Notes under the pieces: generated by a model
Told to the model about the DNA's origin: nothing
The model's database searches: none
What the model saw: the letters and a program-made list of their open reading frames with translations, nothing else
Shown here: piece after piece, positions 18,848-61,193 of the stretch
Position numbering within the stretch: the first letter of the stretch is position 1
Layout of the letters: every line of letters starts with the position of its first letter
NCBI GenBank assembly: GCA_963794945.1
Contig: CAWCFT010000018.1
Location: 3,479 to 67,478 of the forward strand
Direction of reading: 5' to 3'
From: Endomicrobiales bacterium
GTDB taxonomy: Bacteria > Elusimicrobiota > Endomicrobiia > Endomicrobiales > CAWCFT01
DNA length: 64,000 nt
Position numbers and translations under genes: made by a program

Positions 18848-18898
18848 CGCAGAAATACCTTGTATTGATGTTTCAATTATTTTGGATTTATCACCGGA

Positions 18899-22238: not shown

Positions 22239-22300
22239 ACCCTAAGGAAATAATCGTTACAATTACAGGCGGTTTTCACACCAGGGAGCTCCAGCGCCTG
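21022..22300 (+). other. Conserved N-terminal domain shared with A (unassigned)
   Basis: LVINIQDLHCHAEVQKNI..KNVLVEGAAGDVDTSW..LTGAEYY..IIVTITGGFHTRELQ, collinear with A 10385..11675. Confidence 0.4.
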
Positions 22301-26515: not shown

Positions 26516-26534
26516 AACCGTTGCCCGCGAAATT

Positions 26535-37200: not shown

Positions 37201-40200
37201 ATTAAAGATCACGAACCCGTTGAGATAGATGGTTCCATAATTGAAGTGCCGGGCAAAGCCCGCGCTAAGATAACAGTCACAACTACTATAACAATTTCCC
37301 AAGATATATCGTTCGTTCAGATGTTGAGTCTTGTAACCGCGCTTTATCAGGATATGCTCGACAACAGCCGGGAGAAGAGCGCACACTACAGAGAGCTGCT
37401 GCGCGGAAAGATCAAAGACGTTGAAAACATAGCGAAAAATATTATTTACGCTGCAAATTATCTTGAAACTTTGAAATCCGTATGGCCGGAAACACTCGGG
37501 CTTGATACCGGTAAGTCAGCTGAATTCACAGGGTATCTAGACCAAATGATAAGTGGTTTCCGTAAGCTTACTAAAGGATACAAAATACGATCGGCAGATC
37601 CTTTGCAAGCGCAGAAGGAGATAGCCGAGAACTGGCTTGGCGTTGACCAGGCCTGGCTAGATTCCATTATAAAACGTTTCCCCAAAGAAAATCGGCTGGG
37701 AGCTGTTAAAACTCTGTTTGCCGCGAATCAGAGCCGATGGGAGCGCAGCATCGCTTACGAAATGGCCGCGCCAGCCCGTGAACTTGATGCCGCTGTATTG
37801 GAAAAAGGCGGCAGGCTGCTTGATACGATAAAAAGCAAGCCGTCACTAACACGGAGCATAATAGCATTGATTTACGGTTTATTTAAGCCGGGATATAAAA
37901 TGCCTGAAACCTTGCTCGAGGAGATCGATGAAGCGGTTGCCGATAAAACCAGAGGTATGGATAAAACCAGCCCTGCGTTCGCAAAAACACTGATGTCTAT
38001 TGTTGAGAACAGGGTGCACAAATATTATGATATGTTGCTTTTTAGCGGCAGCGCATTCAATAGTTCTAGTTTGCGCCTGTTTGCGGCAGAGCTTGGCGTT
38101 AACCCGCAAGTCCTTGCAAAGGTGTATGAAATATCCCCGTCACGCATTGTTGAAACGCGGCATATGGCATGTATTATGCAAAACTACCTGTGCGGCAGGA
38201 TACTTCAGCAAAAAGGATTTCAGGTGTACTGGGCTAATGTACACGAAGACGCAAACAGTGAACAAATTGTTCATTCCGTTATACTTGCAAAGCTTCCAAG
38301 CGGTCTTTACAGGATCATCGACGCTACCGCTATTAAAGGTTCGGGCGAAATTTCAGCGAATTATCTCGCACCCGGTGAAGTTGAGCAGAGGCTTAAAGAA
38401 TCCCCGGTATTTTCTAAAACACTTAACATCAACAGCCGGTCTCTGCATCACTTAATAAGTGTATTTGCTTTTGAGGAAGGCGCGCGTACAACTATTTATA
38501 ATAACCTTGGGCTGGTAATCAAGGCTCAGAATAAATTCTCGGAAGCCGAAGCGATATTCAAAAATACCAGGATAAATAACGATAATTTCGAGGCTTCTTA
38601 TAACCTCGGGAATTTATATTTCAACCGGGCGCGCTTCGATGAGGCTGAAACTGCCTACAAAAATTCGTTAACAGTGTATCCCAAATTTGTTGGAACATGG
38701 AACAACCTGGCTGCTGCGCTGGACGAACAAGGCCAGCCCGATGCAGCTTATATTGCAAACAGTTACAAGTATCGCTGTATAAACGGAGAACTAATTGATA
38801 TTAAGAAGGCCTTTGCCGAGATCGATAATGCAAAGGAGAAAACTCTCCCCGAATTTTCTGCGCCGGATAGTGACGATAATTCACGGACTGGCAAGACCAG
38901 CTCATTTTTTGGCGTTGCCAAGAAGGCACTAATGTACATCTCATCCGTGTTCGCTATGCTGGCGTTTACGGTGCATATATCTAACAACCACATTTTCGAA
39001 ACGACAGTGCCAAACAAAACAATGCCTGCGCTGATAAAAAACACTGCATCTAAACAAACTGCTGCCGTTTCCACAATTAACGAAAGAATTAATTCGATCA
39101 ATGCCACTTCTTCAAGCGCAGGCCGGTCACATATAAATCAGCTGTTTTTACACCCAGCCCCGCCCCAATATTTCGCGGACACCTTACCTCGCCAAATGCT
39201 TGCATATTTTGCCGAGCTTATGGACCATGTTCAGTTCATCTTCGCTGAAAACAATGAGCTTCCAGCCTGCGGTTTCATCATTGAAGAACACTCGCCGATC
39301 GAAATAGACGGAACTATAATCGATATGCCTGGAAAAGCCCGCAGAAAGGTCACCGTTAACACCACGATCACAATATCTGATGATATATCATTTGTTCAGA
39401 TGCTGGGCCTTATTACAACGCTTTACCAGCAAATGCTTGACAATAGCCAGGGCAAGCCAGAACAATATAAACAGCTTCTGCATGACAAATTAAATAATAT
39501 CGATAACATCGCAAAGAATTTTATCTATGCCGCTGAATATCTTGACACTGTTAAAAGTTCCTGGCCAGAAAAACTGGGCCTTAACACAACTGAAACCATC
39601 CGGTTTGATAATTACATTGAATATGTTATAAACGGCCTGCGCAAACTGGCTGGAGGTTACGAAATTGCACACCAGGATTCGCTTGCTGTTAAAAAGGCAG
39701 CCGCTGAGGCCTGGCTGAGCATTGACCAGAACTGGCTTGACAGCATACAGAACCGTTTCCCCGAAGATCCGGCTAAACGCTTGGAATTTATTATGTCCCA
39801 GCTCAACGCAAAACAAGACGCCTGGGCCCGCGAAGCCGCGGACGGGCTGGCCTCCCCAGCCCGTGAGCTCAATGCCGCGGTTATGCAAAGAGGCGGGAAC
39901 CTGCTGTTAGACAGCCTTAAGAGTAAAGCCGACCCGGCCAGAACGCTTATACAAGAGATCGATATTAAGATCAAAGAGTTCCAGCCAACGGATCCGGAAT
40001 ATACAAATAAGCTTATATCTATCGTTCAGGACAATGTCAAGCCTTACTTCGACAAGACTCTTTATGATAACAATCCCAAAGCATTCAGCGAAAGTTTACA
40101 AAAGTTATCAACGGATCTCGGTATTAGCCCTCAAACGCTCGCGCTTTTGGGTGAAATATCCCCCACGGAAATTACCGAAACAAACCACATGGTATGTGTG

Positions 40201-41355
40201 ATGAAATCGTATTTATGTGGCCTTATATTGGAGCAATATGGTGTGCCTGTTTACTGGCTGGATGTAGTGAAAACGGTAACAGATGCAGAGGAAGTTCATG
40301 TTAGTATACTCGCCAGGCTTCCAAACGGCCTTTACCGCATAGTGGACGCCGCTTTCCCGAAAGGGTCGGGAGAAGTGCCTGAGCAGTATTTAACGGCAGG
40401 AGAAGTCGAAAAACTACTTACAAAATCACCCACAGTAACTAAAACGCTCGATATTAACAGTAAATCGCTCCATCACGTAATAAAGATCTTTCGGTCTTTT
40501 GAAGCCGGCGCGCGCGGAAGCGTTTATAAAAATCTCGGTATCATTTTTAATTCGCTTAACAGGTATGCCGAGGCAGAGAAAGCCTTCAGAAAAGCCTTGG
40601 ATACCGATTCCCAGGATTTCTTGTCTTGGAGCAGGCTCGGTTCCTCGCTTTTACGGCAGAATAAATTTGCCCAAGCAGAGGACGCATTCAAAAATTCTCT
40701 GAAAAACAATCCTGGAAATATTAATGCCTGGAACAGGGTTGCGATCGCTCTATTAAATCAAAATCAATCCGTTGCAGCGCAGATAGCGCGCGATTGTTGT
40801 GACCGTTTATTGAAAGGCGAACAAATTGATATCAATAAGGCTTTTGCCGAGATCGACGCGGCAAAAAAGAAAGTATTTATTTCCGGACTTGGCTTTAACT
40901 TTGACCTTGAAGGTTATCAGGCCTTCCTAGGCGCCCTGGGCATCGGCCTTGACGTTACCGCGGCTGGCTTTGCGCAAGCCGTCATCAAACAATTCACAGG
41001 TGATAACGGCGCCGATATCGTTACTCCCGAAAATGCTTCGCCTGAAGGAAAGCAGGCTCTTGATAACGCTGGCAGGCTTTCTGTTGAACTATCCGGATAC
41101 CTAAAGTCAAAGAATATCTCTTCCACCGCGCGCGTCGTTGTTACAAAAGGCGATAATACCTTCGTTAAATTCGGTAACCGCGTCTGCGGTATGCCGACAT
41201 TCCTTCGTAAAGCTGATGACGGCTCTTTAACGCTATATATACACCAGGAATTCCTTAATGCCCTGTACGCTGAGCAGGCGAGACACGCTAAAGAAAGGGC
41301 TGCCGCTTCTTCCAAGAGGCGATATCATCGCCCAGTTCGTTGGCGAAGAAGTTGA
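28192..41355 (+). CDS. Giant gene B, segment 4 (4387 codons). Holds repeats X2, Y2, X3, W1, Z2, W2, the SpoT-type HD domain, V1, V2 and a degenerate Y3.
   Basis: Uninterrupted 13.2 kb ORF overlapping segment 3 by 68 nt. The Y1-to-X2 junction repeats the in-frame Y2-to-X3 junction found inside this ORF. Confidence 0.92.
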   Translation: MIFSLFLAARLAKKETLILKNHNTGNNMGLITGGQNDDILSRCIENNGENLSFPFLKKLLYYMTGFSIAGTGAVSDVPETINNIPSQIKKEDARIALFCQTLDGKNTYGMPTLQNMATAGEILNSKEQCYAGVVWQGEERNELYIVAVPVSETNIYNLQLGILGQYLITIAKFERTQKNMSSTEISAVKQNIFAAASSVLSQMGTRAYSLTIDPQNGTAIKPFPLESLVSVIYESSVRQSLMGMFKKMQESTSEQALSKLQGPTADEGDVLSVMLINFTRNKDRLLEQSCYRTYKEIVDDMFKQYQYFEIHAYYAYIAQIVAKHCEKSDLPANLKKQFKDIILSTFFDKNGKALKPYLAVAPEYYVLNKLAEADILVLRERVKTLKGPTLRSGQILNVLEILDEMDSKDLQKVIIVLEDAMIWIDFLSIAGDSFNVNMDVMLPNWCLQYFIKNGTDINSNNLQTYEYAIYATARLIAAVRYDENNHKRSPEGLETILSYIKLKARYQLIAQQQKQNSGNSDNLFSALSVVAEEALNLTGGALEQELQKISVKIGRLFSWHFAVNSHAEALKQMFIDKGRAYGINADNIIIKPITKFEQFTDAKGKTRLSVSRFVPEDGKYVLYIHQRFLDALFSMTEEQKNDIYEQYHCGPPETFAIEEVQEFAEIQKLVQLGVSFDKAYEQYHTANPHHNVFTETALQTAAKQIDVLKRCIENNKNNLALPLRKLRYYSTGFSISDSGEVSDVPETVNGIPWQIDIPDARVALFWQKLDGKDKFGMPTPADILTAAGSLAGKEPRYAGVVWQKEAQGNLYIVVVPVSANNNYESALRTLSKYLSDIAAFEGQEKVINSADPFPEEQDAYMLASMLLSQMGARAYSVTIDPENGAAITPMSQESLVRAFYKPSEEQTDSEQPDKRQTNISEKTLFNLRGPHTDEGDLLGVLLLSFTKNTGLLLEEPCFVIYKDILTDTIKQKIYIDIHEDYSSVEKIVDRRCDESVLPANLKRLLKEIILSTLFDKNAKALEPKVRANAWVYVQNKLAEADLRILRERIKILKGPSVKSGKMLNVLNALDAMDNFDIQKTNVILSQAKDLLDILQNKYGNTFNNSVEDTLKLWCIQNSKISSAAGIDNNFEAHFDAAIIFAKLIIAVWYDENNTKRSPEDMQTILSYLQIKGRLQLISQQHSKEQVKENEQGQDTSNHLGIGLEAIIWAAQGILTIMPGVEQSALTAVELAKSIIRGAVIVSNSGGFARESTYTLDQIVPELARDIEYYNTLCPVNGLRLSKVKVLESKSDYIATNDSLGFASMETLAFDEETMTVKTADNKGNLKTLTDRLRHEFNENMAMNIEGSVQFAALNYFLVKSHVAKPHMPRGNLSGEELINCWHACESDIAGNQDEYRELFKNDKDLEAIERLIAFANEDSTKLLKVYKSLSEIIAGLAKSVLAKPVVVDKVEKQPQVFSKYIPTIPPGAFNALTSPEFKKTIDSLTQEVNDPYSKVGIKRQSIIKQSGQPLEKYKKFMLWQGEQKGVRGKGMFSCAGRFNSFRPFAESENITDVYSNGPEYFGNTNDIIEEYSAKYDDRSYILSGIQYETYDEGKAAWPKKAPGIIAIAKIISWLGGAIDGVYYFDVDETGRFSFVNKNETISGSRHNAVIEFTVNGVKKRFWYTQLDAKALTDNNKRYIDRIGFDNFLVTGLNGSIMYADDNGVRDYDDLLKIRSKNTGEQERSKTIIELQMAAAVRNGALVTIDVYKFEGETAYRLCYRGYPVKTILLKPGQNYGYNTGKAGGKIYFLRNAEGLIGSQWRRNDINLNDKPNILRQTLMFLLIPFFAFNSYFPQLKAAPHDTAVTSKLSAAYLYRASAGKAIDWLARGSEYARMKGFLQRYFDIENPAADMQALIKRASRGFDSDMETRAVDLINKMRKAVPDGFVFSKLGAGDFSLLMHILRNPELEILLFDRETLEVYLSENIIGGVPAAQLSNLQMLRIYLISEALSDYAPVSTQDSLARIIYKNMQETDKGNKNGISGRAVFEQGNIGFHEGNLNFGEQGEIFSPDILCALDIDVPDSAAAGISELPRLVIKTLGHPYGYDEVIDVNSLKAAVIISGKDESGQPYSINLGERILSCDENRSAPAEQPEPEEDTTYPAIDHIAATGNHLGIGGEVVLGAVNIITDSILEIFMQLPGAAEAQLTAAQLVQELTDSFIKRTSHEEFYPAKYYLPEELDTKLARDIEYYNSFRPDGGEKLEKISVVESKTGYIAAENGLGFASMENLAFDKNTVIIKTAYNNDRAKTLAMRIRHEINENMARNVAGSVQFTALDHFLAKAHRARDSLSNDELTNHWHECEKDIAGNQDEYKALFKTAQDTIAIDRLISFTLKDLKQLKKSGKSIPKIFAKFIRFFLESRRIELPDEISAAITSKIIDYFDSLKPSVKPPAEMKLGEFADPADLYSAMKAAIAKNAAIKGKSFDFALLDKAYKLVIDEHGTPDQRRGDGRPYYFHPLEIAYYISVDLEKTNQNLILAALLHDIVEDDTSISYDDIPKLFNKDVADIVDDLTHNDNLSKNKGRLYKRLEHINRILTKSNKDSILIKAADRLHNLLTDARAPHPKAGYMDLIETQQWMKFVMRPEVPGPLRRQLLLLLESKLNDQIINEPLSPEAAAATGSTVTNLLPGETADYLQKLTAFADEYQLLRTLIPVKSNENNEIQLASAGGMQWPELTKKLNHFSCQATIIDRNVIAPYEQPGLIDAHSALSRLIGYGVESFDKYRAVYYAAQNTDFLNALKGYTFETFPWQKLWGPYFKEASIAWAVRNLIGTSAAFEEFKVLARDSALIRLINSESRNRRLYFDSEILYVDGVYTIPVASIKPLPAEKIVILTPLGPSSRQVCIEPVLLRLGKFLRERGWNLHVNWGSMPAGYDGFSIAGAQGIFDNNANIPAGNITPAHLEEINRLKNVSEESKGTPYTFQPDFFYPSYFANEMPRAILANFAELMDHVQFAFADSSRLPAAGFTIKDHEPVEIDGSIIEVPGKARAKITVTTTITISQDISFVQMLSLVTALYQDMLDNSREKSAHYRELLRGKIKDVENIAKNIIYAANYLETLKSVWPETLGLDTGKSAEFTGYLDQMISGFRKLTKGYKIRSADPLQAQKEIAENWLGVDQAWLDSIIKRFPKENRLGAVKTLFAANQSRWERSIAYEMAAPARELDAAVLEKGGRLLDTIKSKPSLTRSIIALIYGLFKPGYKMPETLLEEIDEAVADKTRGMDKTSPAFAKTLMSIVENRVHKYYDMLLFSGSAFNSSSLRLFAAELGVNPQVLAKVYEISPSRIVETRHMACIMQNYLCGRILQQKGFQVYWANVHEDANSEQIVHSVILAKLPSGLYRIIDATAIKGSGEISANYLAPGEVEQRLKESPVFSKTLNINSRSLHHLISVFAFEEGARTTIYNNLGLVIKAQNKFSEAEAIFKNTRINNDNFEASYNLGNLYFNRARFDEAETAYKNSLTVYPKFVGTWNNLAAALDEQGQPDAAYIANSYKYRCINGELIDIKKAFAEIDNAKEKTLPEFSAPDSDDNSRTGKTSSFFGVAKKALMYISSVFAMLAFTVHISNNHIFETTVPNKTMPALIKNTASKQTAAVSTINERINSINATSSSAGRSHINQLFLHPAPPQYFADTLPRQMLAYFAELMDHVQFIFAENNELPACGFIIEEHSPIEIDGTIIDMPGKARRKVTVNTTITISDDISFVQMLGLITTLYQQMLDNSQGKPEQYKQLLHDKLNNIDNIAKNFIYAAEYLDTVKSSWPEKLGLNTTETIRFDNYIEYVINGLRKLAGGYEIAHQDSLAVKKAAAEAWLSIDQNWLDSIQNRFPEDPAKRLEFIMSQLNAKQDAWAREAADGLASPARELNAAVMQRGGNLLLDSLKSKADPARTLIQEIDIKIKEFQPTDPEYTNKLISIVQDNVKPYFDKTLYDNNPKAFSESLQKLSTDLGISPQTLALLGEISPTEITETNHMVCVMKSYLCGLILEQYGVPVYWLDVVKTVTDAEEVHVSILARLPNGLYRIVDAAFPKGSGEVPEQYLTAGEVEKLLTKSPTVTKTLDINSKSLHHVIKIFRSFEAGARGSVYKNLGIIFNSLNRYAEAEKAFRKALDTDSQDFLSWSRLGSSLLRQNKFAQAEDAFKNSLKNNPGNINAWNRVAIALLNQNQSVAAQIARDCCDRLLKGEQIDINKAFAEIDAAKKKVFISGLGFNFDLEGYQAFLGALGIGLDVTAAGFAQAVIKQFTGDNGADIVTPENASPEGKQALDNAGRLSVELSGYLKSKNISSTARVVVTKGDNTFVKFGNRVCGMPTFLRKADDGSLTLYIHQEFLNALYAEQARHAKERAAASSKRRYHRPVRWRRS
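28306..29757 (+). repeat. Protein-level repeat X, copy 2
   Basis: ILSRCIENNGENLSFPFLKKLLYYMTGFSIAGTGAVSDVPE..YAGVVWQGEERNELYIVAVPVSE..MGTRAYSLTIDP..LQGPTADEGDVLS..LPANLKKQFKDIILSTFFDKNGKAL.. Confidence 0.85.
29758..30280 (+). repeat. Protein-level repeat Y, copy 2
   Basis: LFSALSVVAEEALNLTGGALEQELQ..IIKPITKFEQFTDAKGKTRLSVSR..KYVLYIHQRFLDALFSMTEEQK..CGPPETFAIEEVQEFAEIQKLVQLG..AYEQYHTANPH. Confidence 0.9.
30307..31779 (+). repeat. Protein-level repeat X, copy 3
   Basis: DVLKRCIENNKNNLALPLRKLRYYSTGFSISDSGEVSDVPE..YAGVVWQKEAQGNLYIVVVPVS..MGARAYSVTIDP..LRGPHTDEGDLLG..LPANLKRLLKEIILSTLFDKNAKAL.. Confidence 0.85.
31780..32520 (+). repeat. Protein-level repeat W, copy 1
   Basis: NHLGIGLEAI..LARDIEYYNTLCPVNGLRLSKVKVLESKSDYIATNDSLGFASMETLAFD..LTDRLRHEFNENMA..NCWHACESDIAGNQDEYRELFK.. 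Confidence 0.85.
32572..33620 (+). repeat. Protein-level repeat Z, copy 2
   Basis: IPTIPPGAFNALTSPEFKKTIDSLTQEVNDPYS..FMLWQGEQKGVRG..FNSFRPFAESENITDVYS..APGIIAIAKIISWLGGAIDGVYYFD..HNAVIEFTVNGVKKRFWYTQ..FDNFLVTGLNG.. Confidence 0.85.
33640..33687 (+). other. Hydrophobic (TM-like) segment after Z2
   Basis: TLMFLLIPFFAFNSYF. Confidence 0.45.
34639..35450 (+). repeat. Protein-level repeat W, copy 2
   Basis: NHLGIGGEVV..LARDIEYYNSFRPDGGEKLEKISVVESKTGYIAAENGLGFASMENLAFD..LAMRIRHEINENMA..NHWHECEKDIAGNQDEYKALFK.. Confidence 0.85.
35578..35990 (+). other. RelA/SpoT-type HD ((p)ppGpp hydrolase-like) domain embedded in B
   Basis: ..RRGDGRPYYFHPLEIAYYI..LILAALLHDIVEDD..SYDDIPKLFNKDVADIVDDLTH..ILIKAADRLHNLLT. 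The H...HD...D order and the ADRLHN motif are characteristic of the SpoT/Mesh1-type hydrolase domain. No synthetase domain follows. Confidence 0.8.
37075..38841 (+). repeat. Repeat V, copy 1 (unassigned N-part, then transglutaminase-like Cys-His-Asp core, then TPR)
   Basis: FFYPSYFANEMPRAILANFAELMDHVQFAFADSS..DGSIIEVPGKARAKITVTTTITIS.. The candidate triad is ETRHMACIMQNYLCGRIL (Cys 38170-38172) .. IVHSVILAKLPSGLYRIIDAT. TPR-like repeats lie at about 38480-38760. The copy ends at KKAFAEIDNAKEK. Confidence 0.85.
38896..38988 (+). other. Internal signal-peptide-like / signal-anchor-like segment preceding V2
   Basis: TSSFFGVAKKALMYISSVFAMLAFTVHISNN: a KK n-region, a hydrophobic core and a small-residue c-region, in frame inside the 4387-codon ORF. 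Confidence 0.55.
39142..40872 (+). repeat. Repeat V, copy 2
   Basis: LFLHPAPPQYFADTLPRQMLAYFAELMDHVQFIFAENN..DGTIIDMPGKARRKVTVNTTITIS..ETNHMVCVMKSYLCGLIL..VHVSILARLPNGLYRIVDAA.. TPR-like repeats lie at about 40520-40790. The copy ends at NKAFAEIDAAKKK. Confidence 0.85.
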
Positions 41356-41400
41356 CGAGCTGTTTGACATCGAGAACCTCTTATCAAACCAACATCTTTC
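41000..41400 (+). repeat. Degenerate repeat Y, copy 3 (crosses the segment 4/5 frame break)
   Basis: ..RLSVELSG..GSLTLYIHQEFLNALY.. then, in the next frame, ..AQFVGEEVDELFDIENLL.., collinear with the Y1/Y2 elements LSVSR / LYIHQxFLxALF / AxEExQExAEIQKL. Confidence 0.5.
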
Positions 41401-44400
41401 TTCTGTTCAGGCTTATTTCCAACACCACAATCAGCGGGAAAACTTTCCTCAAGCCCATAACGGTATCATAACATCTATCGCGGAACAGACCGGCCTTACT
41501 GTCCTGGGTGTTGAAGATAACATCAATAACCAGCCAGGTGGATTCATTAGCGCTGCCAAGAAGGCGCTAATGTACGTCGCCTGCTGCTTCGCAGCGCTGG
41601 TGTTCATGATCAGAATTTCAAACGCTCAAACAAATACAATAACCTTGCCTTATAACAATAATATTGCGCTAAGTAAAGACTCCTTGGTGAAACCGGGCCC
41701 TGCCAATCTTTTCAACTATGAAAATCGGTTGTTCTTGCATCCTATCCCGCCTGGATATTTCGCGGATACAATACAACGCAAGATGCTCTCCTATTTTGCC
41801 GAACTTATGGACCATATCCAGTTTGTCTTCGCCGACAGTTCCGAGCTCCCGGCTTCGGGATTTACAATAAAAGACCATGCCCCTATTATAGTTGACGGTA
41901 CTATTATAGATGTTCCGGGTAAAGCTCACAGGAAGGTCACTGTGACCACTACTATCACCTTATCAAAAGATATATCGTTCGTTCAGATGCTGAACCTCGT
42001 TAGAACGCTTTACCAGCAAATGCTTGACAACAACCAGGGCAAGACTGAACAGTACAAGCAATACATTCAGCAGAAATTAAATAATATCGATAATATCGCG
42101 AAGAAGTTTATATATTCTGCCGATTATCTTGACACTGTTAAAAATTCCTGGCCGAAAGAACTGGGCCTTAATTCGAACGAAACGCTGCAGTTCATAAATT
42201 ACATTGATTTTGTCATAAACGGCCTGCGCAATATGGCTGGAGATTACGAAATTGTTCACCAGGACCAACCGGAAACCAGAACAACAACCGCTGAAAATTG
42301 GCTTGGCGTAAACCAAGATTGGATCAATAGTATTGTGAACCAATTTCCAGGGGATTCTTCAAAGCGTATGCAATTCATTATTCAGCAATTCAATGCAAAA
42401 CAAGATTTCTGGGCCCGCAATGCCGCAGACGGACTTGCCGCCCCCGCGCTGGAGCTTGACGCCGCGGTAATGGAAACTGGCGGGAGGCTGCTGGACGGCA
42501 TTAAAATTTTTGGCGATACATCCGTGATGCTAAGCAATGTAGTAGCCAAAAAAATGAAAGGTATATCTCCATCGGACCCGAAATACACGGATAAAATTAC
42601 GGAGCTGGTGCAGAAAAAAGTCGGGGAATACATAGATACAACCCTGATGAGCAGCCATCCTGAAAAATTCACTGAATTATATAAACAGGCCGCTGAAACT
42701 CTAGGAGTTAACCCGGCCGTAATGGCAATTCTGGGAGAGATATCTCCGGCCAATATAGTCGAAACACAGCATATGGTTTGTGTTATGCGAGCCTGCCTGT
42801 GCGGCAGGATACTGCAGCAGTATGGCATCAGGGTTTACTGGCTGGATGTTCAAGAAAGGGTAACCGGTGAAGAAGACGACCATGTCGCTTTACTTGCGCA
42901 GCTACCGAACGGGCTGTACCGGATAGTAGATGCCGCTGTCCCGCAAGGCGCCGGGAATGTGCCAAAGCAATATATCGCGGCAGGAGAAATAGAAAAACTG
43001 CTTGCAAACACGCCTGTCATTACAAAAACACTTGATACCACCAGCAGCCGGCTTCATCATATCATAAGGATAACCGATTTTGATGCCGGCTTACGGTCCA
43101 GCGTGTTTAACAATCTTGGCATTGCCCTTTCCAAAATGGGGCATCACAGTGAAGCCGAGCTGGCTTATAAAAAATCTTTGGAGATTAACTCCATTAACGC
43201 TTCCGCGTTGGCAAATTTGGGGCTAGCATATTTTCATATGGGGAGGCTCACAGATTGTGAAAATTGTGTTAAAAAAGCGGTTGAGATAAACCCGCGGTTT
43301 TATATGGCGTGGTATAAACTGGCTGTCGCGCTTTTCGGCCAGCAGCGATATGCCGAATCCGACCAGGCACTTAGAAAGTGCCTGGAAATAAACCCTCAAT
43401 TTACCTCATCCTGGAGTAAAATGGTATCGACTCTTAGCGCCCAGCAACAACCCGCCGCAGCAAAAATTGCGGGTAAATATTGCGTTCGATCCATGGCGGG
43501 TGATCATATTAACCCGAAATCAGCCTTTGAAGAGATAGATGGGGCAACAAGCCACACGACGCTGGCAAATATTAATAAACTTGGCATCAATCGGCAGGAT
43601 ATCGATGTTATCGCCATCGCGGCCATGGAAATATTAAACCAGCTGCCGGCAACCGCAAAACTGCAGTTAACCGCTGGTCAATTGGCTCAGGAATTACTTG
43701 AACTGGGAGCTGACATAGCAACAGTAAAGGAGTTTAATTCACAAACCGTTTACAACCTTGAAGACCTTGACCAGGAGCTTGCACGGGATATCGATTATTA
43801 TAACGCTTTTTGCCCGGTAGGCGGGATAAAGCTGACAAAATTATCTGTCACTGAATCATCAGCCGGCTACATAACATTAAAGGACAGCTTTGGATTAGCG
43901 AGCATGGACAGCATTTCTTTCAATAATGATACAGCGAACATAAAAACAGCCAACAACAAGAATAATCCTAAAATACTGACAAACCGCCTCAGGCACGAAT
44001 TCAACGAGAATATGGCCGAGAATATAATTGATTCTATTCAGTATAAGGCGCTTAACCATTTCCTCGGCAAAATACACGCGGCCCGTAACAATTTAAGTAA
44101 TGCTGAACTGACAAATTACTGGCATGAGTGTGAAGTCGACATCGCGCGGCATCAAGGTGAATATAGGGCGCTGGCCAAAACGGGCCAGGAACAGCCCGCG
44201 GCCGAACGGCTTATCGCTTTTGCTAAAATTGATTCAAGGCAGATAAAACTTGCTTACAGGTTTATCGCTAAGATCTTTGTTGATCTGCTCAAGACACTGC
44301 TGCAAAACAAACAGATAGAGCTTCCCGCCGAAACATCAGCGGGCATTGTCCTGATAATTCAAGGATTGTTTACGCAGCATTGGAATAGGTCAAAAACAGA

Positions 44401-47400
44401 TCAGCCAACCGGCTCAACTGAGGCTGACTCCGGACTACCAGGCAGTGATGAAACGGTGCCGGAACAAAACACCGGCGATGGCCGTATCCCAGCGTCAAAT
44501 GTTACGGAGTTCGCCGCTAATCGTCCTACCGCAGAAGAATACGCTAGAAAACTTGTCGCTGACAAACAACTAACGCTCACAGCGGACGATGGCAAGCAGT
44601 TCCGCTTTGTCTATGAAAACATGCCTTCCAATGAATTTAAGCTTATAACCTATGACAATATGACTAATGAACAAGTTGGATTTATAGATGTCCGCGGCAA
44701 TCGCATAGATTCTGCTTTTAATGAAATATTTATTGGTGAACCGGCCATAGTAGTGGACAATAGGTATAATGAGCGATACCGCGGTATCGGCTCAGCTCTT
44801 TTGCGGCTTTCAATGTCGGTGACAAAGAATAATGGGTATAAAGAGTTTGATGTCTTATACGGCAGTAAGGCGGCAAAGTTTTATAGAAGCGCTGGTTTTG
44901 AAGAGATAAATCATGAAACGGGCAAATTTTCTTTCGATTTTACAAAGAAAAAAATAGGCGGAATTCTGCTCGAATACTTTCCTAAACCCGAATTTCTGGT
45001 AAATGAGATCGCTAAATTAAGGAAAATAGACTCAGCGGCCGCGGACATCCTTCTGAAGCGTTTGGGGATGACTTCCAGGGCTGACAAAGATGGTTTGCGG
45101 TATTTAAACGAAGATATTCAGTGGTTCAGAACACATAGAAAAACTAAAGACGGTGTGTATTTTGACCCTATCGATAAAAACAACCCTAAAGTGTCCGTTA
45201 TTTTACTTCATTATGGGAATTCAGTTAAAGATACATTACAGGCCCTCAACAACCTTTCACTGAATACCTATCCTGATCTTGATGTTATTCTCGTAGACAA
45301 CAATTCTCCCGTTCCGATCGAACAGAAAGATATCTCCGCCAAAATAGCGGATAAGTTAAAGATAAAGCTTATTAAGAGCCCCGTGAATCTCGGTTACTGC
45401 GGGGGCAATAATATGGCCGCGCGCGCAGCTCTAAACAACGGCGCGGACTATGTTTTCCTGTTTAATAATGACGGCTTGATAGAAAAAGACGGGATACAGA
45501 AAATGATAGATAAGCTCAAGGGCCATCCTGAAATCGGGGCCATACAGCCAAGCCTTTATACAACCAATGAGCTCAAAGAAATAAATGAAAAGGGTGTTCT
45601 GCCGGAAGAACAGGGCACGGATGCATTAAACAGGACTCTTGAATTCACTTACGGCTTGGAAAAAACCAATACCGCTTCAAAATTATCCGACAACTTGTAT
45701 CAAAAAGAAATATCCCTGCTGGGCACCGCGCAAATGGTCCGGTCGGACATGATCCGTTTGAGCGGCATGTTCGATACAAGGTTGTTTATGTACGCGGATG
45801 AGGCTTACCTGGGTTATCGCTATAGCATGACCGGCCTGAAAATGGGAATGGTAACCGATGTGTTTTTTGCTCATCCGCCTTTTGCGGCCATTGAAACCCC
45901 GAAAGTATACAGTGAATACCTCATCTGGCGCAATTATATGTTTGATGCGGAATATCTTTACAATATTGACGATATGGGAAAAAGGGCGGTTAAAAACCTC
46001 TTTGGGCCGCGTAACTTGTTCATATCAAATGATGATGCAGTTTGGAGAATGGTGGAAGAAAGCGCCAATGAAAACGACATATTGCTTATTGCGGTAGTAA
46101 AGGGCATGTTTGACGGAGTTATGGGACAGTATTCGCCAACTGTAGAAGGGCAAAACATGGACGAGAAAAAGCAGATCGCGACGTATTCAAAAGAGTTCGA
46201 GAAAATGATCGATGTTAACGGGATTTTGCTTAGATTGATAAATGAAACCGATCCATATCAATCAAGGCTTATGATCTGGGGGCTGAATGCCGCCGACAGC
46301 AAGATACATAATATCGGCCAATTGGACGGTATACAAAGGCAAAAACTAATCGACACACTGAAATATTATGTGTCAGAATGGAGAGATTGGGTAAAAACAA
46401 AACATAGAGACCAATCGGCAATAACAAAAATAAGAAACGAATTTAAAAATGAACTTCTGGGTAAGATTAATGTATTCACACCGTCAGAAACCCTCGGGCA
46501 TGAGCAATATTTAGACAGGTATTCCGATAAATCTAATATTAACGATGAAGCTTATATGCAGGTGGCCCTTAACGAGTCGCGCAAAGCCGGCATCGAACGC
46601 TGGTTGTTTACAGCTTGTGTCGGCGCGGTTGTGGTAAGCGGCAAAGGCATTATTGTGGGCAGAGGGTATAACCGCATGTTCTCGCAGTTCCATGCGGAAC
46701 ACTATGCCATACTTGACGCGCTGTTTGCGCGCGTGGAGTCGCTTGCCGAAGGAAAACAGAAAGGTATAATGCGTAGCCGCATTAATGAAATACTGCGCAC
46801 TGCGAACATGCCCCGAGCGCCCGATTATTATGATAATCTCGATGCGGCTATCACAGCGTTAAACAGGGATTTGGGCGGTGTTTTGCAAAATTCTCCAATT
46901 TATGTGACTATGCACCCCTGCGATAAGTGCACAAATCTCATAATGTCTTTGGGTATGAAGCGTTTGGTTTATGGCGCCGAAATGCCGGGAGGCTCATTAG
47001 ATAACGGGAAAAAGTTACGAAACGCGGGGATGGAAACTACCGGCGGTGTTTTGGCGCGGGAGTCACGCACTGTAATGACCGGATACTTTCTGCTCAAAAC
47101 CTATTTTTCATATATTCACGAGCTTATCCAGCGCCTTGAGCGTCAGATTATATCGCGCCGGCACTCCGTTTTAACTGCCAATGAAATGGCCTCTCTCAAT
47201 AAGCCTGTTGAGCTGTCAAAAACCACCGGATTAAATGTAACAGATGAGAACGAAAAAAAACCATCCACCCCGATTATAACTACCGAACCTGAAGAAGTCC
47301 TTCCAATAGTGCGAGGCCGGTCATGGCAGGATAGAATTTCTTTTATCAGCAAAATTGAACAAGAGGGGTTAGTGAACAATAGTTTGCGTATGGAATACGC

Positions 47401-50400
47401 TTCCACTCCGCAAACAAAAGAAGCTTTTAAGGCCGTATACAACGACCTGAAGAACATCATTAATAACAGTTCAGTGCTGAGGCTGAATCCCGCAGATCAC
47501 ACTCATTTTACAATTGTTAATTTACCGGCATTTATGTCGCAGGAACAGCTGCCAGAATCGTTATTTAGAAATAGTGTTGAATCTACGGTCATGCCTGCCT
47601 TGCGGCAGATACCGGTAACTGATTTTCAGCTTTCTGGTAATATTAAAATAACTGATAGCGGTGCTATAATCTACGAGATAACCGATCCGGAAACAATAGA
47701 AAAGATAACACTGATCAGGAATAAATTTGATAATTCCTGGGATAAGCCTAACATAGTTCATATGACTATAGGCAATATACTTGACCCGGGGATATCACCG
47801 GAATTGCTGGCCAGGATCCGTGATGTTGTAGCTATTCACAATCAAAAGAGAACATTAGATCAGCGCATAACCGTGCGAAATATGAAATTTGAAAAATCCA
47901 ACTATTTTGGCGATATTGTCTATTTGTCGCAGGATGTGCCGTTGGCAAAACCTGAACTCAAAACAAACAATCTGTCTGAAGGCCGGCAAGGGCTGGAACC
48001 TCAAGCAGGTCTGTCAAATGATATAGTCTTAGAGAAGGCCGACATCAGCTTATTAAACAGCCCCTCCCTTTTATCAAATTCTGGCTATGCTAAAGCTAAT
48101 AAGCCTTCAACGGAAGATTATGCGAAACAGCTTGTTGGGAAAAAGGAATTAATATTAGCCGCGAACGAAGGCAAGGAGTTCCGATTTGTTTATGAAGACA
48201 TGTTCTTTAATAAGTTTAAGCTTACAGTTTACGAGAATGAAACTAGCAATAAAATTGGATTTATTGATGTCCGCGGCAACCTTATAGATTTTTCATTTGA
48301 CAAACCCTATAATGGAGAGGCCGGCCCTGCCATTGTGGTAAACAACAACTACACTCAGCAATACAGAGGTATTGGTTCCGCTCTTATGCTTCTTTCAATG
48401 GCAGTGGCAAAGAACAATGGATATAAGGAATTTAACGTTCAATACGGTAGTAAGGCTGCCAGGTTTTACGAAAGCCTCGGTTTTGTCGCGAATAAACACA
48501 TCGCCGGCAAGTTTACCTATAATTTCAGCGAGAAAAAAATAGGCGGGATTCTTATCGAAACCAAAACCGATATAGATAACTATAACCTTGGCCAGCTGGA
48601 TAGTTCACAAAATACGCCAGAGCAATACGCTGATAATACGGACCTGGCCTCAAGCTTGCTGCAGGGATTGGAACCTCAGTCAGGCTTGGACGACGAAATT
48701 CTTACAGCTTCATGGTCCGGAAATGAGAAATATATCACGTATTTTGCTCATTGGATAGAGTCTCCTGTTTTGATCTGCGCGCTGGCCCTGGCCGCGAGGC
48801 TATTCGTTCCAGTGGAGTACGATACGCTTGTAGCGGCCCTAGGGCCGATCGCAGCATACTTCGCTTTCCGCCTGCCGCACCTGCTGCGTGGTGCGAAAAT
48901 ATTCAATAGCAAGCCGGTACATAAAATGTCTTACTACAGCCTGGGTCTAAGTGTGCCAGTCTTTGCTTTGTTCATTCCTGGCGTTAGTGTGATCGGGTAT
49001 TGCCTGCTGGGTTTCATGTCATTTTTATCACTGATTTATCTTGCCTCTGAGCATTTTATCACGAACCACAACATTGAGAATAGTGATGAGACGTTTAGCA
49101 GTTTATTTGAAGCCCTACGTTATTCTTACTATGAGCATAAGCTGGAGAAATATGAACGTCAGAAAATGATCTACAGGAGATATAATAATGAAGACAAATA
49201 CATTGAAATTCCCATAACGAAATATTCATTATATCCTGCGCTCGGTTTGATAAGTAATATCCATTCTGGCCAATCCGAGTTTGAAAGAGCGTTGATTCTG
49301 GGTATAGAAAAATATGCGCTGGGTTTATCCGGCGATTACAATAAAAACCGTACTGATCTCGATGCCATTATCAAAAAATTCAACGACATCGCCTGCCTGG
49401 ATGAGTACGATGATTTTAAAAACCCGCTTTTTGCCCTACGGGCAATGATAAAAATAGGGGCTGCCCTTAGCGGCGATAACACGTTAGTGAAAAAGATCAT
49501 CCTGCCTACGTTCATTGCGAAGGCGCAGGATGATACTGGGTATTATGCGAACCGATTACGCGCATGCGCGACTGAAGGGCTTGCGGAATTGACGCCTCTC
49601 ATCCCAGACAAAGATTTTAAGGAAAAGACCGTCATTCCCATCTTGATTCGAAATATGTTAACGCCAAATACAGAAATAGGCAGGGGCGAACCCCTATCAA
49701 GAAAGGAAGAACTTTGGGATCTGAATAGAGCAGGATTCGAATCCCTGTATCATCTGATAAAACCAACAGGCCGGCCGATAAAAATCACGGCCAATGATAT
49801 GTACCTTATTAACCACTCTTTCGGAATGAAGAATCTTGAGAAATACTATCCTGTGATGATCGATATCGCTGAAAAAGCAGGGCAGCATGCAGGCCTTGTC
49901 CTCAGTCGTACAGTTGAATGGAGTGGAATTCAAAAGGACGACACATACGAAACTGGGAAAGAGAAGCTGACTCTTTTTGCGGAGCAATACATAGAGCTTC
50001 TTATCAAGTTCGACAAGATTGAAGAAAAATATTTAATACTTGATAGAAAATATGTAGAGCAATATATCTACTCGTGGCAATTACTGTCTCTAATAAGCGG
50101 TTTGTCGCTGGCCGATACTTTTGAAGCAATAGTTAACAAGACTGGCGTTGAAGGCCTTGCTATTTTGAAATATGAACAATATTTACAAGCTGTACGTGAA
50201 GGTATTACTGTTCCAAATAAACAATTCCTGATTGTTTTAGATGAGCTTTGTGTTGAATTTATTGCCATTTCAAAGTCTGAGAATCATGATTTTTTCGAGT
50301 CTGACCTTTTTAGATTCTGGCCAAAGAACGAGATTAATGATGATTTTGTTGCCAACCTGCATTATTACCAGGAGATCATAGGCGCAATTCATAATAAAAA

Positions 50401-55100: not shown

Positions 55101-56334
55101 GGCCGGGCACAGCCCGGTATTTTTCAGCCAGGAAAACAGCGTGGTATATCTTTATATTGACGCCGAAGGCGCTGATTTCGCGGTGGGAGCAAGCCAGATT
55201 ATGGCCACATTGAGGGGTTATGGCAACCTTGAAGCGGATCCCCGCGCTTTAAAGATGCTTGGTATAAGAGAAACGGCAAAAGATAATGCTGTAGTATTTG
55301 ATTATACTGGCGGGGCCTTAGATAGAAATATGCTTTCTGATACCCCAGTGGTGCCTGGTGAGAACGTGAATATCGGCTTTGGCGCGATAAGAGAACTGGA
55401 TCGTGCGCATAAGAACGCACGAGCGCCTGCCGAGGTAGGCATTGAACGCGGCTGGAGTGATGAGCTCTTAGACCGAAGCAATATAGAAAGCTTTAATAAT
55501 TCAATCATTATTCCATCTGGAGACATCTTTAAACTAACCTTAGAAAAGGTTCGTCAGCTACAGAGCGAAGGCGCAAGGGTGCACGCGATATACGAAGGGT
55601 CAGATATTGAACAAGCAAGAGCTTTCGAGCGAACAGCCATAGGCTTGGGCCTCAACGGCATATTCTGCCCTGCTCTGAGCCCCGAAGCAATGGTCTCACT
55701 GACCAAATTAGATAATTCCGAACCTGCAGGTTTTATTGTATCCGGCCAGCTAGTTGGAGGCAGTGCCGAAAAGAGAAAATTTTATAGTTTAGAACTTTCT
55801 GCCGCTGACTATGCCGCGCGGATAGCCGCAATACGCGATACGGAGTTCCCTGTCGTAAGTATCAAGCTGGGCCAATTATCCACCGCGGACGCCGCTAAGC
55901 GCGTAGAAGCCCTAAAAGACCTGCCCTCTTCAGCAATTATTATCTTTACGGCTGATGATATAAAAAACAACGGAATGTTCAGAGATATTTCAGAAATTAA
56001 CATATTCGGCGCAAACCTCCTTAAATTCCTGCGGCTGACCCCGAGGACTATTTCCGAGAAGGAAGCTTTCCAGAGGCGTGTGGCGTTCGAGCTTGATTTT
56101 GGAACGTTTGAAGTGCCCCAGGACGCCGCGGCTTACATGGAGAACATCAGGAGTGAAAGGTTCGACCTGACCTCTTTCCCCGAAAATACTGAAGTTCTCG
56201 CAGCGGCTAAACTTCACTTAAGCGAAGAATCAGAACGTTCGGCTCAAAGACGTTTTCAAACAATCACTTGTCAGCCGCATAAGGGCCCGTATCGAGCTTG
56301 CCGGGAAAAGAAAAATGCTGGGGTTAGAAAATAG
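52030..56334 (+). CDS. Giant gene B, segment 8 (1434 codons; TM pair, GHKL ATPase-like domain, unassigned C-terminal regions)
   Basis: GTG-initiated ORF overlapping segment 7 by 127 nt. The frame change is plausible at the G4/C4 runs in gcaggggtgggagtccccggc (about 52034-52054). Confidence 0.9.
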   Translation: MRRGGSPRLLNPTGIHREMPLLHACEANVAFIQIFSKNNVQIANAVVVFAKNGAYVYGGYNNSSYNMDGVYGEAIKELTKYVPRVYLTKNSAGYSDLVNYGSNVEGEVIVQKPSVYFTGQYYDAGTVTSDGDLSVNLVNPLEVTYEGIRKNGGFEKKEEAKAPERVEIKSNIEWEKLQEMLDVQGLKKFSRIMSNFKKKVAEQGAFAVDNDYYDWVANDIRSWHRGDVSDAQIEEIADILVDFLESQQWPVEVLTGPDRTGILQVGGLGVVIGMALASWGLPVLGGVVLTLGVASLFVGPDAGKFKNFGGYFWQYISSFIPRLGKELSSALRHESSKQVAVSIARTTANNSGRTKKIVTESSADSSQSSIPNRTDAISPIILTENVVDFKFANTEEILRGLFVKWKNRVNTQTLSNENLRLIEEFLRAYGKPMDRDRLVNYDIVSTALRELLKNAFDAYISAAAEGKIRFRMMVEGNFLVFEVSDNGIGIEEQYYDNTGRLHVVPNDVLPYAYISTRYGGAGLGMLHTQILAQVHGGSLKYLTGQNDGYKTTARLTIPMTTVSIKFRNKDGRVMSAKTYLRIINKDKIEAQNKAEEDLIIQQYGIDRTTAEQAVRNGWTVERMKDIENINDNFCNIFEKRFGFTVRPKIIFKPSPNLPYNIATISRYNDPQINSWVFIAVTRFNYKTAVNTINNWYLEEFAHALQNNLFGERFASFPEMKPTDYAAFCAELKKGFTAKDSRLSVPPFNITSVTGRGSQYGSFYMLDEEILRQLFEVHAAALAWILSLTWLPQESLDSDRRFAYWDAAARIEEAEFPSHLFSGILPYLIGVRTPPNSSIRIPSLASHAAMWEAVLELNGKYGFIPAEKLKKIEEFVKIRQKAMQVTDLEGKNIYLALKESYKAYFLSVTQSFINSDKSIQELVQNNRINIKSNFFVQISLAITSYLSNLKYSSNIVAEWADKFMRERTNGLYGTELPMGVFIAENIGQLSGVQFEVKKYLPVVITSTKGNEKEIENTTTKNLGVTAGHSPVFFSQENSVVYLYIDAEGADFAVGASQIMATLRGYGNLEADPRALKMLGIRETAKDNAVVFDYTGGALDRNMLSDTPVVPGENVNIGFGAIRELDRAHKNARAPAEVGIERGWSDELLDRSNIESFNNSIIIPSGDIFKLTLEKVRQLQSEGARVHAIYEGSDIEQARAFERTAIGLGLNGIFCPALSPEAMVSLTKLDNSEPAGFIVSGQLVGGSAEKRKFYSLELSAADYAARIAAIRDTEFPVVSIKLGQLSTADAAKRVEALKDLPSSAIIIFTADDIKNNGMFRDISEINIFGANLLKFLRLTPRTISEKEAFQRRVAFELDFGTFEVPQDAAAYMENIRSERFDLTSFPENTEVLAAAKLHLSEESERSAQRRFQTITCQPHKGPYRACREKKNAGVRK
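52825..52930 (+). other. Pair of glycine-rich hydrophobic (TM-like) helices in B
   Basis: GGLGVVIGMALASWGLPVLGGVVLTLGVASLFVG. Confidence 0.55.
53356..53703 (+). other. GHKL (histidine-kinase-like) ATPase domain
   Basis: N box RELLKNAFDA, G1 box SDNGIGI (53482-53499), G2 box YGGAGLGM (53584-53604), then ..GGSLKY..TTARLTIP. I could not see a HisKA dimerisation/phospho-acceptor helix directly upstream. Confidence 0.65.
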
Positions 56335-56620
56335 CGGGCTTGAAGAAACGCTAGCCGTAGCACTTGACATGTCGGAAGGAAGGTTTGTCAAGAACGATAA
56401 CTTCGCCGGAGAAAAATCGGTTGCGGATGCTGGCAAAGCCTTAGACGACAAGGTCTTGTCATGGAAGTCGATCCAAGACCAAAAGATAAAAACGGCACAG
56501 GCCGCAGAGATCGCCGGCCTCATCATTCAATACGCCGATCCTCGCGTGAAAAAACTTGACAGAAATCGGCTCCGTGCGAGCGACCTGAAAAACACAAAGG
56601 CGATACTCGAAGCCGCATAA
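56315..56620 (+). CDS. Giant gene B, segment 9 (C-terminal tail)
   Basis: 101-codon ORF overlapping segment 8 by 20 nt. Its frame is open upstream (..DVFKQSLVSRIRARIELAGKRKMLGLENSG..). The stop at 56618-56620 is the proposed end of the giant gene. Confidence 0.7.
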   Translation: MLGLENSGLEETLAVALDMSEGRFVKNDNFAGEKSVADAGKALDDKVLSWKSIQDQKIKTAQAAEIAGLIIQYADPRVKKLDRNRLRASDLKNTKAILEAA

Positions 56621-58091: not shown

Positions 58092-58173
58092 ACAACGATT
58101 TCGGACCGAAAGGTTAATTTCGAAACAATGCCTGATTAATATTATGTTCCCGAATACCCAGGAGGAGCAGTAA

Positions 58174-59166: not shown

Positions 59167-59179
59167 GCTACAGGCACAT

Positions 59180-61159: not shown

Positions 61160-61193
61160 ACTGTCTTTAGATAGTTTAATTTCTCTTCAGCCT

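Follow-up and report, generated by a model that had tools for sequence, protein, structure and literature searches.

A five-enzyme cassette within a probable giant protein of an Endomicrobiales bacterium

What would a bacterium do with five enzyme domains strung together in one reading frame, and on which side of its membrane would they work? This question is raised by a stretch of 64,000 nucleotides from an Endomicrobiales bacterium (GenBank assembly GCA_963794945.1, contig CAWCFT010000018.1, positions 3,479 to 67,478 of the forward strand), which was analysed at its full length and is called the window here. An open reading frame (ORF) of 3144 residues, at 41258-50692 on the plus strand, carries at 44516-48559 a GNAT domain, a family 2 glycosyltransferase (GT2), a zinc deaminase, a 2H phosphoesterase and a second GNAT, in this order and in a single unbroken frame. 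Positions are given in window coordinates, and residue n of the ORF starts at 41258+3(n-1). As described below, the five enzyme domains are real and look catalytically intact, and the cassette probably makes up one block of the variable cargo carried by a giant protein of ~11,900 residues. The individual domains are ordinary; what is new, within the known theme of giant multi-domain bacterial proteins, is the architecture and the family to which it leads.

Domain content of the cassette

The cassette is made up of the following features:

44516-44974, plus strand: GNAT copy 1 (residues 1087-1239), with RGIGSAL at 44780-44800; Acetyltransf_7, 31.8 bits
45020-46462, plus strand: GT2 module (residues 1255-1735), with a helical lead-in, a GT-A core and a conserved extension of ~300 residues
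45293, 45461 and 45791, plus strand: the motifs VDNNSP, FNNDG (a variant DxD) and YADEAY, respectively, within the GT2 module
46541-47107, plus strand: CDA-fold zinc deaminase (residues 1762-1950), with HAE at 46691-46699, PCDKC at 46916-46930 and an insert of ~46 residues between them
47375-47962, plus strand: LigT-like 2H domain (residues 2040-2235), with HFTI at 47504-47515 and HMTI at 47759-47770
48095-48559, plus strand: GNAT copy 2 (residues 2280-2434), with RGIGSAL at 48365-48385; Acetyltransf_7, 30.1 bits

Pfam was run twice, on the whole ORF and piece by piece, with gathering thresholds applied per domain. The whole 3144-residue ORF returned TPRs at residues 615-715, two stretches of Acetyltransf_7 (E 2.9e-13, the first at residues 1132-1216), Glycos_transf_2 and dCMP_cyt_deam_1. 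Each GNAT copy exceeded the Acetyltransf_7 cutoff of 27 bits when taken alone, and both copies keep the acetyl-CoA motif A (RGIGSA), so that profile and motif agree in placing them among the GNATs. Over 155 residues the two copies share 60% identity and 81% similarity (E 1e-66), with 70% identity at the DNA level; judged from this comparison, the pair is an old duplication within the gene and not an assembly repeat. A short peptide repeat, QGLEPQ[AS]GL-x-D, brackets GNAT copy 2 at 47987-48004 and 48662-48679 and has no other occurrence in the gene. Duplication or insertion may have left it as a scar, or it may be a linker or a cleavage motif.

Glycos_transf_2 matched residues 1321-1442 (E 2e-11 on the whole ORF, E 1.5e-12 piecewise) with 48.2 bits against a cutoff of 23.3, which assigns the domain to GT2. 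The position aligned with the DxD motif reads NND in the window and in two relatives, P0002 and P0003, and DSD in heparosan synthase, i.e., the first Asp is replaced. Heparosan synthase and SpsA were also the weak matches of this domain in the PDB, and its nearest relatives are GT2s of the polysaccharide type (GlfT1, rhamnosyltransferase, heparosan synthase and SpsA).

The deaminase matched dCMP_cyt_deam_1 at residues 1762-1906 (E 1.2e-11 on the whole ORF, 4.3e-14 piecewise), with 145 residues spread over 99 profile positions. The score of 52.7 bits, against a cutoff of 25, identifies a CDA-fold deaminase, and MafB19-deam was matched as well (40.3 bits). HAE (residue 1812) and PCDKC (residue 1887) are separated by 72 residues. 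When the domain was compared with the TadA and RibD structures, ~56 of its residues stood in place of ~10, which leaves an insert of ~46 residues; this agrees with the unusually long insert between the zinc ligands that had been noted in the initial annotation. The insert is also kept in a distant relative, P0009, where it is 74 residues long. The best structural matches were RibD (2hxv, 3.4e-8) and TadA (2b3j, 4e-6), the best NCBIfam match was RibD (1.8e-10), and the domain has in common with TadA and the N-terminal deaminase of RibD the zinc and catalytic motifs HAE and PCxxC. An assignment to RibD or TadA proper was nevertheless rejected: the scores are far below equivalog level (40.5 bits against a cutoff of 156 for RibD, 29 against 150 for TadA), there is no reductase domain, and the window deaminase carries the conserved insert and is fused to a 2H domain.

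The 2H domain was the weakest of the assignments. Its HxT motifs start at residues 2083 (HFTI) and 2168 (HMTI), and direct searches of Pfam, NCBIfam and PDB sequences gave no match to this region of the window. An exhaustive phmmer search of 1.84 billion representatives, in contrast, found 17 relatives of the domain (E 3e-16 to 3e-4), nearly all of them within proteins of 1.5-6.5 thousand residues. By local iteration 19 copies of the domain were delimited in the relatives. An 18-sequence alignment, built from 17 of them and the window copy, has both motif histidines at least 90% conserved. LigT_PEase was matched by 9 of the 18 copies (best E 6.9e-9) and 2_5_RNA_ligase2 by 4, with the window copy matching neither, so that membership of the 2H group by a curated profile would be transitive, through the relatives. 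A profile of the family found nothing among PDB sequences. AlphaFold2 gave a pLDDT (predicted local distance difference test) of 35 from the single sequence, and a pLDDT of 88.3 with a predicted TM-score of 0.85 from the 18-sequence alignment. At E <= 0.001, essentially all Foldseek matches of this model in the PDB belonged to the 2H superfamily, and their TM-scores reached 0.63-0.66. Among them were Usb1, LigT-like proteins from P. horikoshii and P. furiosus, the central domain of AKAP18, plant CPDase and ASCC1; E. coli LigT fell just under this cut. As modelled, the domain is a LigT-like 2H phosphoesterase. It has in common with the LigT/ThpR type (PF02834, PF13563) two HxT/S motifs ~85 residues apart and a fold of duplicated beta-alpha-beta lobes. 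It differs in giving no direct profile match, in its giant-protein setting, in an Arg to Asn change after the second motif and in the predicted location of the domain on the exported side in the giant relatives (see below). When the 2H domain or its alignment was run against a word-indexed protein collection, no homologue came back and even the identical P0001 was missed, against the 17 relatives of the exhaustive search. Domains buried in giant proteins thus appear to be missed by the word index, and this null result reflects a limit of the index, not absence.

Hence every domain type named in the initial annotation was assigned correctly, including the 2H-like domain with its two HxTx motifs, which the LigT_PEase matches of the relatives and the AlphaFold2 model bear out, and the two homologous GNATs. 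The loss of catalytic residues, or of profile support, that would have spoken against it was not what we found, and the catalytic motifs are retained in the cassette domains. Of the limits given there (44531-48559) the end is right; the start is slightly off, since GNAT copy 1 begins at ~44516.

We then asked whether the combination occurs elsewhere. The five domains were found together nowhere else in a protein search, the GTDB species genomes, the JGI metagenomes, or the phage and plasmid records. A search with the whole 1343-residue cassette returned four proteins only. P0001 is the same gene in a different assembly. P0002 (857 residues) and P0003 (1109 residues) share with the cassette the GT2 module alone, collinear and at 38-41% and 33-34% identity, respectively; the module is joined there to other partners, an esterase-like region in P0003 and an unrelated C-terminal domain in P0002. 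The C-terminal region of P0002 looks like a GNAT, but it has no BLASTP similarity to the window GNAT, and a conserved GT2-GNAT pair was dropped. From the deaminase, through its insert and the linker, to the 2H domain, the cassette is collinear with residues 2059-2493 of P0009 (29% identity over 474 residues, E 6e-41). This deaminase-2H pair was not found in the GTDB species genomes, and a search for it in the JGI metagenomes gave small stand-alone deaminases only. Since the GT2 unit and the deaminase-2H unit occur separately, in P0002/P0003 and in P0009, their junction bracketed by GNATs shows that the cassette was assembled from pre-existing units, namely a GT2 module, a deaminase-insert-2H pair and a GNAT duplicated within the gene.

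The alignments to P0002 and P0003 (GT2 module) and to P0009 (deaminase to 2H) cross the cassette without breaks. For this reason the frame of the window is taken to be the correct one inside the cassette, and it is contig L081, from another assembly, that appears broken within the GT2 module. These comparisons also bear on the idea that separate neighbouring genes were fused into one frame by an assembly artefact. The assembly clearly has indel errors. However, indels break frames and do not extend them, an open frame of 3144 codons at ~44% GC cannot be due to chance, the deaminase-2H fusion is found independently in P0009, and whole giant ORFs are present in independent short-read assemblies, so that such an artefact is hardly credible.

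Extent of the gene and its relatives in Elusimicrobiota

The 3144-residue ORF is probably a gene fragment. The gene to which it likely belongs, and which we consider to be a single one with reasonable confidence, is:

20832-56620, plus strand: putative giant gene of ~35.8 kb and ~11,900 codons, split into 9 ORF pieces in the assembly

This reading rests on a head at 20832, a tail at 56620, repeats that cross ORF borders, and indels located at GCNGC. The ORF at 20760-22238 carries a signal peptide, MNFNKFISIITTACFLVSFIASPAVQA, and the motif VINIQDLHCHAEVQ (the 'VINIQDLHCH' head), and the ORF at 22157-26515, in another frame, opens with TITGGFHTRELQ ('TGGFHT') and continues the head. Taken together, the two ORFs align collinearly with the first ~700 residues of P0017 (44% identity for the first part, E 3e-131), and they also match the heads of P0005-7, P0009, P0014-16 and P0018. 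The tail, ...NTKAILEAA*, ends at 56620 in a frame other than that of the last long ORF (tail piece 56222-56620). Two kinds of large repeats, described below as the repeat module and module X, span ORF borders.

Contig L081 is 99.35% identical to the window over 18 kb (35465-53523) and differs from it at 70 indel positions. Its versions at 51025 and 52057 join three window ORFs and close two junctions, and a single deletion at 41296 would join the ORF at 28192-41355 to that at 41258-50692. Of the 70 indels, 39 lie within 2 nt of a GCNGC sequence, where 3.7 were expected, and GCNGC is present in 5 of 8 frame-junction windows. The eight junctions are at 22157-22238, 26515-26535, 28192-28259, 41258-41355, ~50622-50692, 51017-51060, 52030-52156 and 56222-56334. 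This cluster has the signature of a systematic long-read error at a methylated motif, and it points to an active GCNGC methyltransferase in the organism. Some weight must be given to the opposite view: the junctions at 41258-41355 and ~50622-50692 are not repaired by the second assembly, and AGGA-N8-ATG precedes 41258, so that the 3144-residue ORF could be a separate gene.

Other genes of the window also look split or truncated. In the regions 17375-19684 (minus strand) and 58174-62725 (plus strand), the phosphofructokinase (PFK) ORF matches its profile over positions 1-196 of 277 only, and a response regulator begins at profile position 52. The second ABC/MacB gene ends 23 residues into its periplasmic domain, and the HlyD and MacB ORFs overlap by 158 nt. 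Such housekeeping genes are consistent with assembly indels over the whole window. They can also be cited, together with the at least 8 frame changes between 20832 and 56620 and the genome reduction that some Endomicrobia endosymbionts undergo (PMC11257099), in favour of a decaying pseudogene, in which the frame breaks would be genuine and the string of domains a remnant from which no protein is produced any more. Against decay stand the GCNGC bias of the indels, the two junctions closed by the other assembly, the persistence of clean ORFs of 9.4 kb and 13.2 kb, the intact state of all catalytic motifs, and the GNAT copies, which at 70% DNA identity have kept 60% identity and 81% similarity in protein, with motif A in both. 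Hence we regard a pseudogene as very unlikely.

The head was used to search for relatives. When the GTDB species genomes were scanned with the head alignment, 222 relatives were obtained; statements on lineage refer to the best 80 of these, almost all of which come from Elusimicrobiota (Endomicrobiales, Elusimicrobiales, and rumen and termite lineages). Up to nine head copies came from one genome bin. No Pfam or NCBIfam model matched the head. Members of the family have in common a Sec-type signal peptide, a conserved head of ~550 residues, at least one LigT-like 2H domain, a variable set of enzymes and a conserved tail, and a CPBP-like block of intramembrane helices is often present. Across the family the cargo includes PPDK_N with the PEP-utilizers mobile domain, GH77, PRK, PRTase, PrmA-type methyltransferases, HATPase_c, HD and HAD. 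The C-termini of seemingly complete relatives mostly end in ...IL-x-AA (KILDTAA, NILSAA, MLLKAA). This tail, ...[IL]L-x-[AS]A (KAILEAA* in the window; P0005-P0017), resembles non-polar C-terminal tags or secretion signals. With its INIQDLHCH...GGFH head, its 2H domain and its tail the window protein falls within the family, provided that the ORF pieces are one gene.

Two relatives are complete in themselves: P0005 (3775 residues) is an intact ORF found in six independent short-read contigs, between gatCAB and proB, and P0009 (4344 residues) is a complete ORF. P0006 (3215 residues) and P0010 (2750 residues) have no Pfam-A match at all at E <= 0.001, and their 2H copies are detectable only transitively. 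A second member of the family lies in the window itself, at 1660-11989 on the minus strand. Its signal peptide and INIQDLHCH and GGFH head are in the ORF at 9161-11989 (minus strand), this head being 50% identical to the plus-strand head and 40% to that of P0017, and the ORF at 1660-9153 (minus strand), 8 nt further on, contains radical SAM and phosphoglucomutase domains.

A literature search gave no description of the head/2H/tail family or of the cassette, and the family is apparently undescribed so far. Elusimicrobiota are reported to be enriched in uncharacterised huge proteins (PMC11573180; bioRxiv 10.1101/2023.11.21.568195).

Topology and possible site of action of the cassette

The initial annotation had placed the cassette between membrane segments of a giant protein. 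The hydrophobic flanks (residues 100-121 and 2493-2602) were found, and the size of the protein is very probably far above that of the 3144-residue ORF, whose place as a fragment of a larger gene had gone unnoticed in the initial annotation. The segments are:

41555-41611, plus strand: signal-peptide-like or transmembrane (TM) segment AKKALMYVACCFAALVFMI, Kyte-Doolittle 2.11, which opens a repeat module of ~700 residues
48734-49063, plus strand: block of 3-4 hydrophobic helices directly after GNAT copy 2 (residues 2493-2602), Kyte-Doolittle up to 2.16

In the relatives the chain runs from the signal peptide to the 2H domain without a hydrophobic segment, and in P0005 and P0010 no such segment follows the signal peptide anywhere. 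Because no membrane segment follows the signal peptide before the 2H domain, this domain would by default lie on the exported side in the relatives. In the window, two TM-like segments, an even number, separate head and cassette, which agrees with an exported cassette.

We therefore favour, tentatively and at somewhat less than even probability, an exported or membrane-threaded 'polyvalent' multi-enzyme array that acts in trans. What the analysis establishes is the identity of the domains, the conservation of their catalytic motifs, the modular origin, the membership of the family and the probable size of the gene; export, action in trans and substrates are what we infer. The chain would use its signal peptide and its internal hydrophobic segments to leave the cell or to thread through the membrane, and the enzyme block would thereby be presented outside the cytoplasm of the producer. 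The deaminase and the metal-independent 2H esterase would act on substrates of the nucleotide or RNA-end type, and the GT2 and GNAT domains would modify glycan, protein or nucleotide targets at sites where nucleoside diphosphate (NDP)-sugar and acetyl-CoA are available, i.e., in the interior of a partner, host or prey cell. Neither 2H enzymes nor zinc deaminases require a cosubstrate, and both could be active outside a cell. GNATs need acetyl-CoA and GT2s need NDP-sugars, which are cytoplasmic cosubstrates, and therefore these domains, if exported, would be active only inside another cell. An effector role fits a multi-copy family in which the signal-peptide head and the tail stay the same and the enzyme cargo varies.

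The same cosubstrates can be turned into an argument for the main rival, a membrane mega-enzyme acting in cis. Here the cassette would lie on the cytoplasmic face and draw on the cell's own NDP-sugars and acetyl-CoA to make or alter a glycoconjugate of the envelope or a metabolite derived from nucleotides, while the exported head and other parts would handle the product outside. The polysaccharide-type relatives of the GT2 are in line with such a role, and so is a cargo rich in sugar and nucleotide metabolism (phosphoglucomutase, GH77, PPDK-like, PRK, PRTase, HAD, HD). Topology speaks on both sides. A strongly positive loop, RGAKIFNSKPVHK, in the helix block past GNAT copy 2 would place the end of the cassette in the cytoplasm by the positive-inside rule, whereas the uninterrupted stretch from signal-peptide head to 2H domain in the relatives and the even number of TM-like segments in the window point to the other side. 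Moreover, no polysaccharide export or flippase genes lie nearby, and many divergent paralogues per genome would be unusual for a biosynthetic housekeeping enzyme. A mega-enzyme working in cis is in our view unlikely, although of the alternatives it deserves the most attention.

The exported array itself has to be set against several observations that do not fit it well. The prediction from the positive loop contradicts the count of hydrophobic segments, and the paralogous repeat modules, with one hydrophobic segment each, would fall on opposite sides of the membrane, which makes simple threading awkward. Within the enzymes, the NND variant of the GT2 has to be counted here, and so does the Asn of the window 2H copy, which stands at the nearly invariant Arg of the family just after the second motif. 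The cargo of the family looks metabolic and not toxin-like (PPDK_N, GH77, PRK, PRTase, RibD/TadA-like deaminase). No immunity-like gene, known toxin delivery domain or convincing defence-system match was found, and the TolC/HlyD/MacB neighbourhood of the window (see below) is not conserved beside P0005. Of the earlier interpretation, then, the domain calls stand, and the 'multi-effector toxin' reading has points both for and against it.

The repeat modules deserve separate mention. The module of ~700 residues upstream of the cassette (residues 75-778), which ends in TPRs, has two earlier copies in the ORF at 28192-41355, at residues 3547-4236 (48% identity) and 2965-3551 (42% identity). The three modules of ~650-700 residues lie in tandem at 37084-43591, and copies 2 and 3 open with a signal-peptide-like AKKALMY...ISN segment. 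In all three the stretch HM-x-C-x-M...LCG-x-IL...H...LYRI-x-DA precedes the terminal TPRs. It is reminiscent of the Cys-His-Asp core of transglutaminases; the part of the third module that precedes the TPRs (residues 122-610) had no Pfam match, which leaves the transglutaminase idea without profile support. Module X (residues 770-1031; 43565-44350) has two further copies in the ORF at 28192-41355 (residues 1197-1441 and 2147-2412) and three in P0017. Its motif H-E-x-x-E/H, seen as LRHEFNENM in the window, FAHELAEHM in P0017 and FHELMH in P0006, suggests that it may be a metallopeptidase-like domain, with no support from Pfam. HEAT-like repeats suspected in the C-terminal 540 residues of the 3144-residue ORF had no Pfam support either. 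As to the helix block after the 2H domain, it matches Rce1-like/CPBP in P0015 (6.5e-5) and P0018 (8.8e-4). For the window block a CPBP/Rce1-like protease was rejected, with no profile match and WIESPV in place of the EExxxR motif.

These elements enter into a bolder version of the effector idea, which we consider rather improbable: the proteins could be self-processing 'effector polyproteins' whose cassettes, once released, end up in or on the cell of a host, prey or neighbour. The Sec signal and the head would take the chain out of the cell; the CPBP-like blocks, the HExxH/E modules and the signal-peptide-like repeat modules would serve as built-in peptidase-like cutters; and the released cassettes would edit nucleotides or RNA ends, or glycosylate or acetylate their targets. 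If true, this would be a MARTX-like strategy invented independently.

Genomic context, known systems and significance

The window carries ordinary chromosomal genes, with tyrosyl-tRNA synthetase (TyrRS), PFK and homologues of TolC, HlyD and MacB, and its TyrRS is closest to those of Elusimicrobiales (74%) and Endomicrobiia (66%) genomes. The giant gene is directly followed, at 56763-62725 on the plus strand, by genes for a TolC-like outer-membrane factor, an HlyD-family adaptor and two MacB-type ABC proteins. They could be the exporter of the giant protein.

This context is relevant to the proposal that the protein is of the polyvalent type encoded by phages or conjugative elements, or that it serves anti-phage defence as a module on a mobile element. 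Polyvalent proteins typically string together GNAT, 2H and nucleotide-metabolism domains (Iyer et al. 2017, PMC5512222); in them many catalytic domains, peptidase-like ones included, have likewise accreted and been shuffled, and PADLOC gave a weak match of the deaminase to a dCTP deaminase model (2.8e-6). Nevertheless, the surroundings are of the housekeeping, chromosomal kind (TyrRS and PFK here, GatCAB and ProB for P0005), and a search of 50,697 phage and 72,556 plasmid records gave generic GT2 matches only, on which the phage or plasmid reading was rejected. The defence-system reading was rejected likewise, as no match to a defence system was convincing. A signal-peptide head and TM blocks, as in the window protein, are not features of polyvalent proteins packaged in virions. 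A mobile-element origin is accordingly highly improbable.

Among the closest known systems are the MARTX (multifunctional-autoprocessing RTX) toxins and the large clostridial toxins. These are also very large polypeptides with constant ends and a variable central array of enzymes, glycosyltransferase and acyl- or acetyl-transferase types among them, and with hydrophobic or translocation segments. An ABC/MFP/TolC-type exporter encoded nearby is a further common trait, found in the window at 56763-62120; the neighbouring ABC protein of the window is of the MacB type, and this neighbourhood does not extend to P0005. The window protein differs from these toxins in its Sec signal peptide, its unrelated head and its metabolic-looking cargo, and Pfam searches of the ORFs at 20760-56334, pieces 50665-51060 and 56222-56620 left out, found no RTX/GD or CROP repeats and no cysteine protease domain. 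Nor does it have the layout of a polymorphic toxin: the cassette is internal, the C-terminus is the conserved family tail, and TolC/HlyD/MacB genes follow downstream.

A comparison can also be made with the giant proteins of Omnitrophota and PVC bacteria (West-Roberts et al. 2023, bioRxiv 10.1101/2023.11.21.568195; Kizina et al. 2022). Those proteins also reach at least 10,000 residues, belong to small-celled and possibly host-dependent bacteria, and have N-terminal membrane anchors and embedded enzymes that include GNATs; Elusimicrobiota are listed there among the phyla with proteins of at least 10,000 residues (bioRxiv 10.1101/2023.11.21.568195). They are described as having mainly surface-binding and cell-wall-degrading domains (dockerin type, 'archaeovorins'), unlike the window protein, and as far as the accessible text goes no such head, tail or 2H hallmark is mentioned there.

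What the locus offers first is a concrete anatomy for the uncharacterised huge proteins of Elusimicrobiota: a head, a tail, a 2H hallmark and a multi-copy family, with the middle of the giant protein occupied by a shuffled set of intact-looking enzymes. In the window the ORF borders appear to be corrupted by motif-specific long-read errors, so that gene calls would understate the true size ~4-fold. The conserved deaminase-2H pair predicts a shared substrate, which may be of the nucleotide or RNA type, and the cassette provides four soluble domain types, each open to separate expression. If the proteins are exported effector arrays, they would give bacteria that are ultra-small and often host-associated a new way of manipulating their partners; if they act in cis, the cassette would belong to an unusual kind of membrane-tethered metabolic mega-enzyme.

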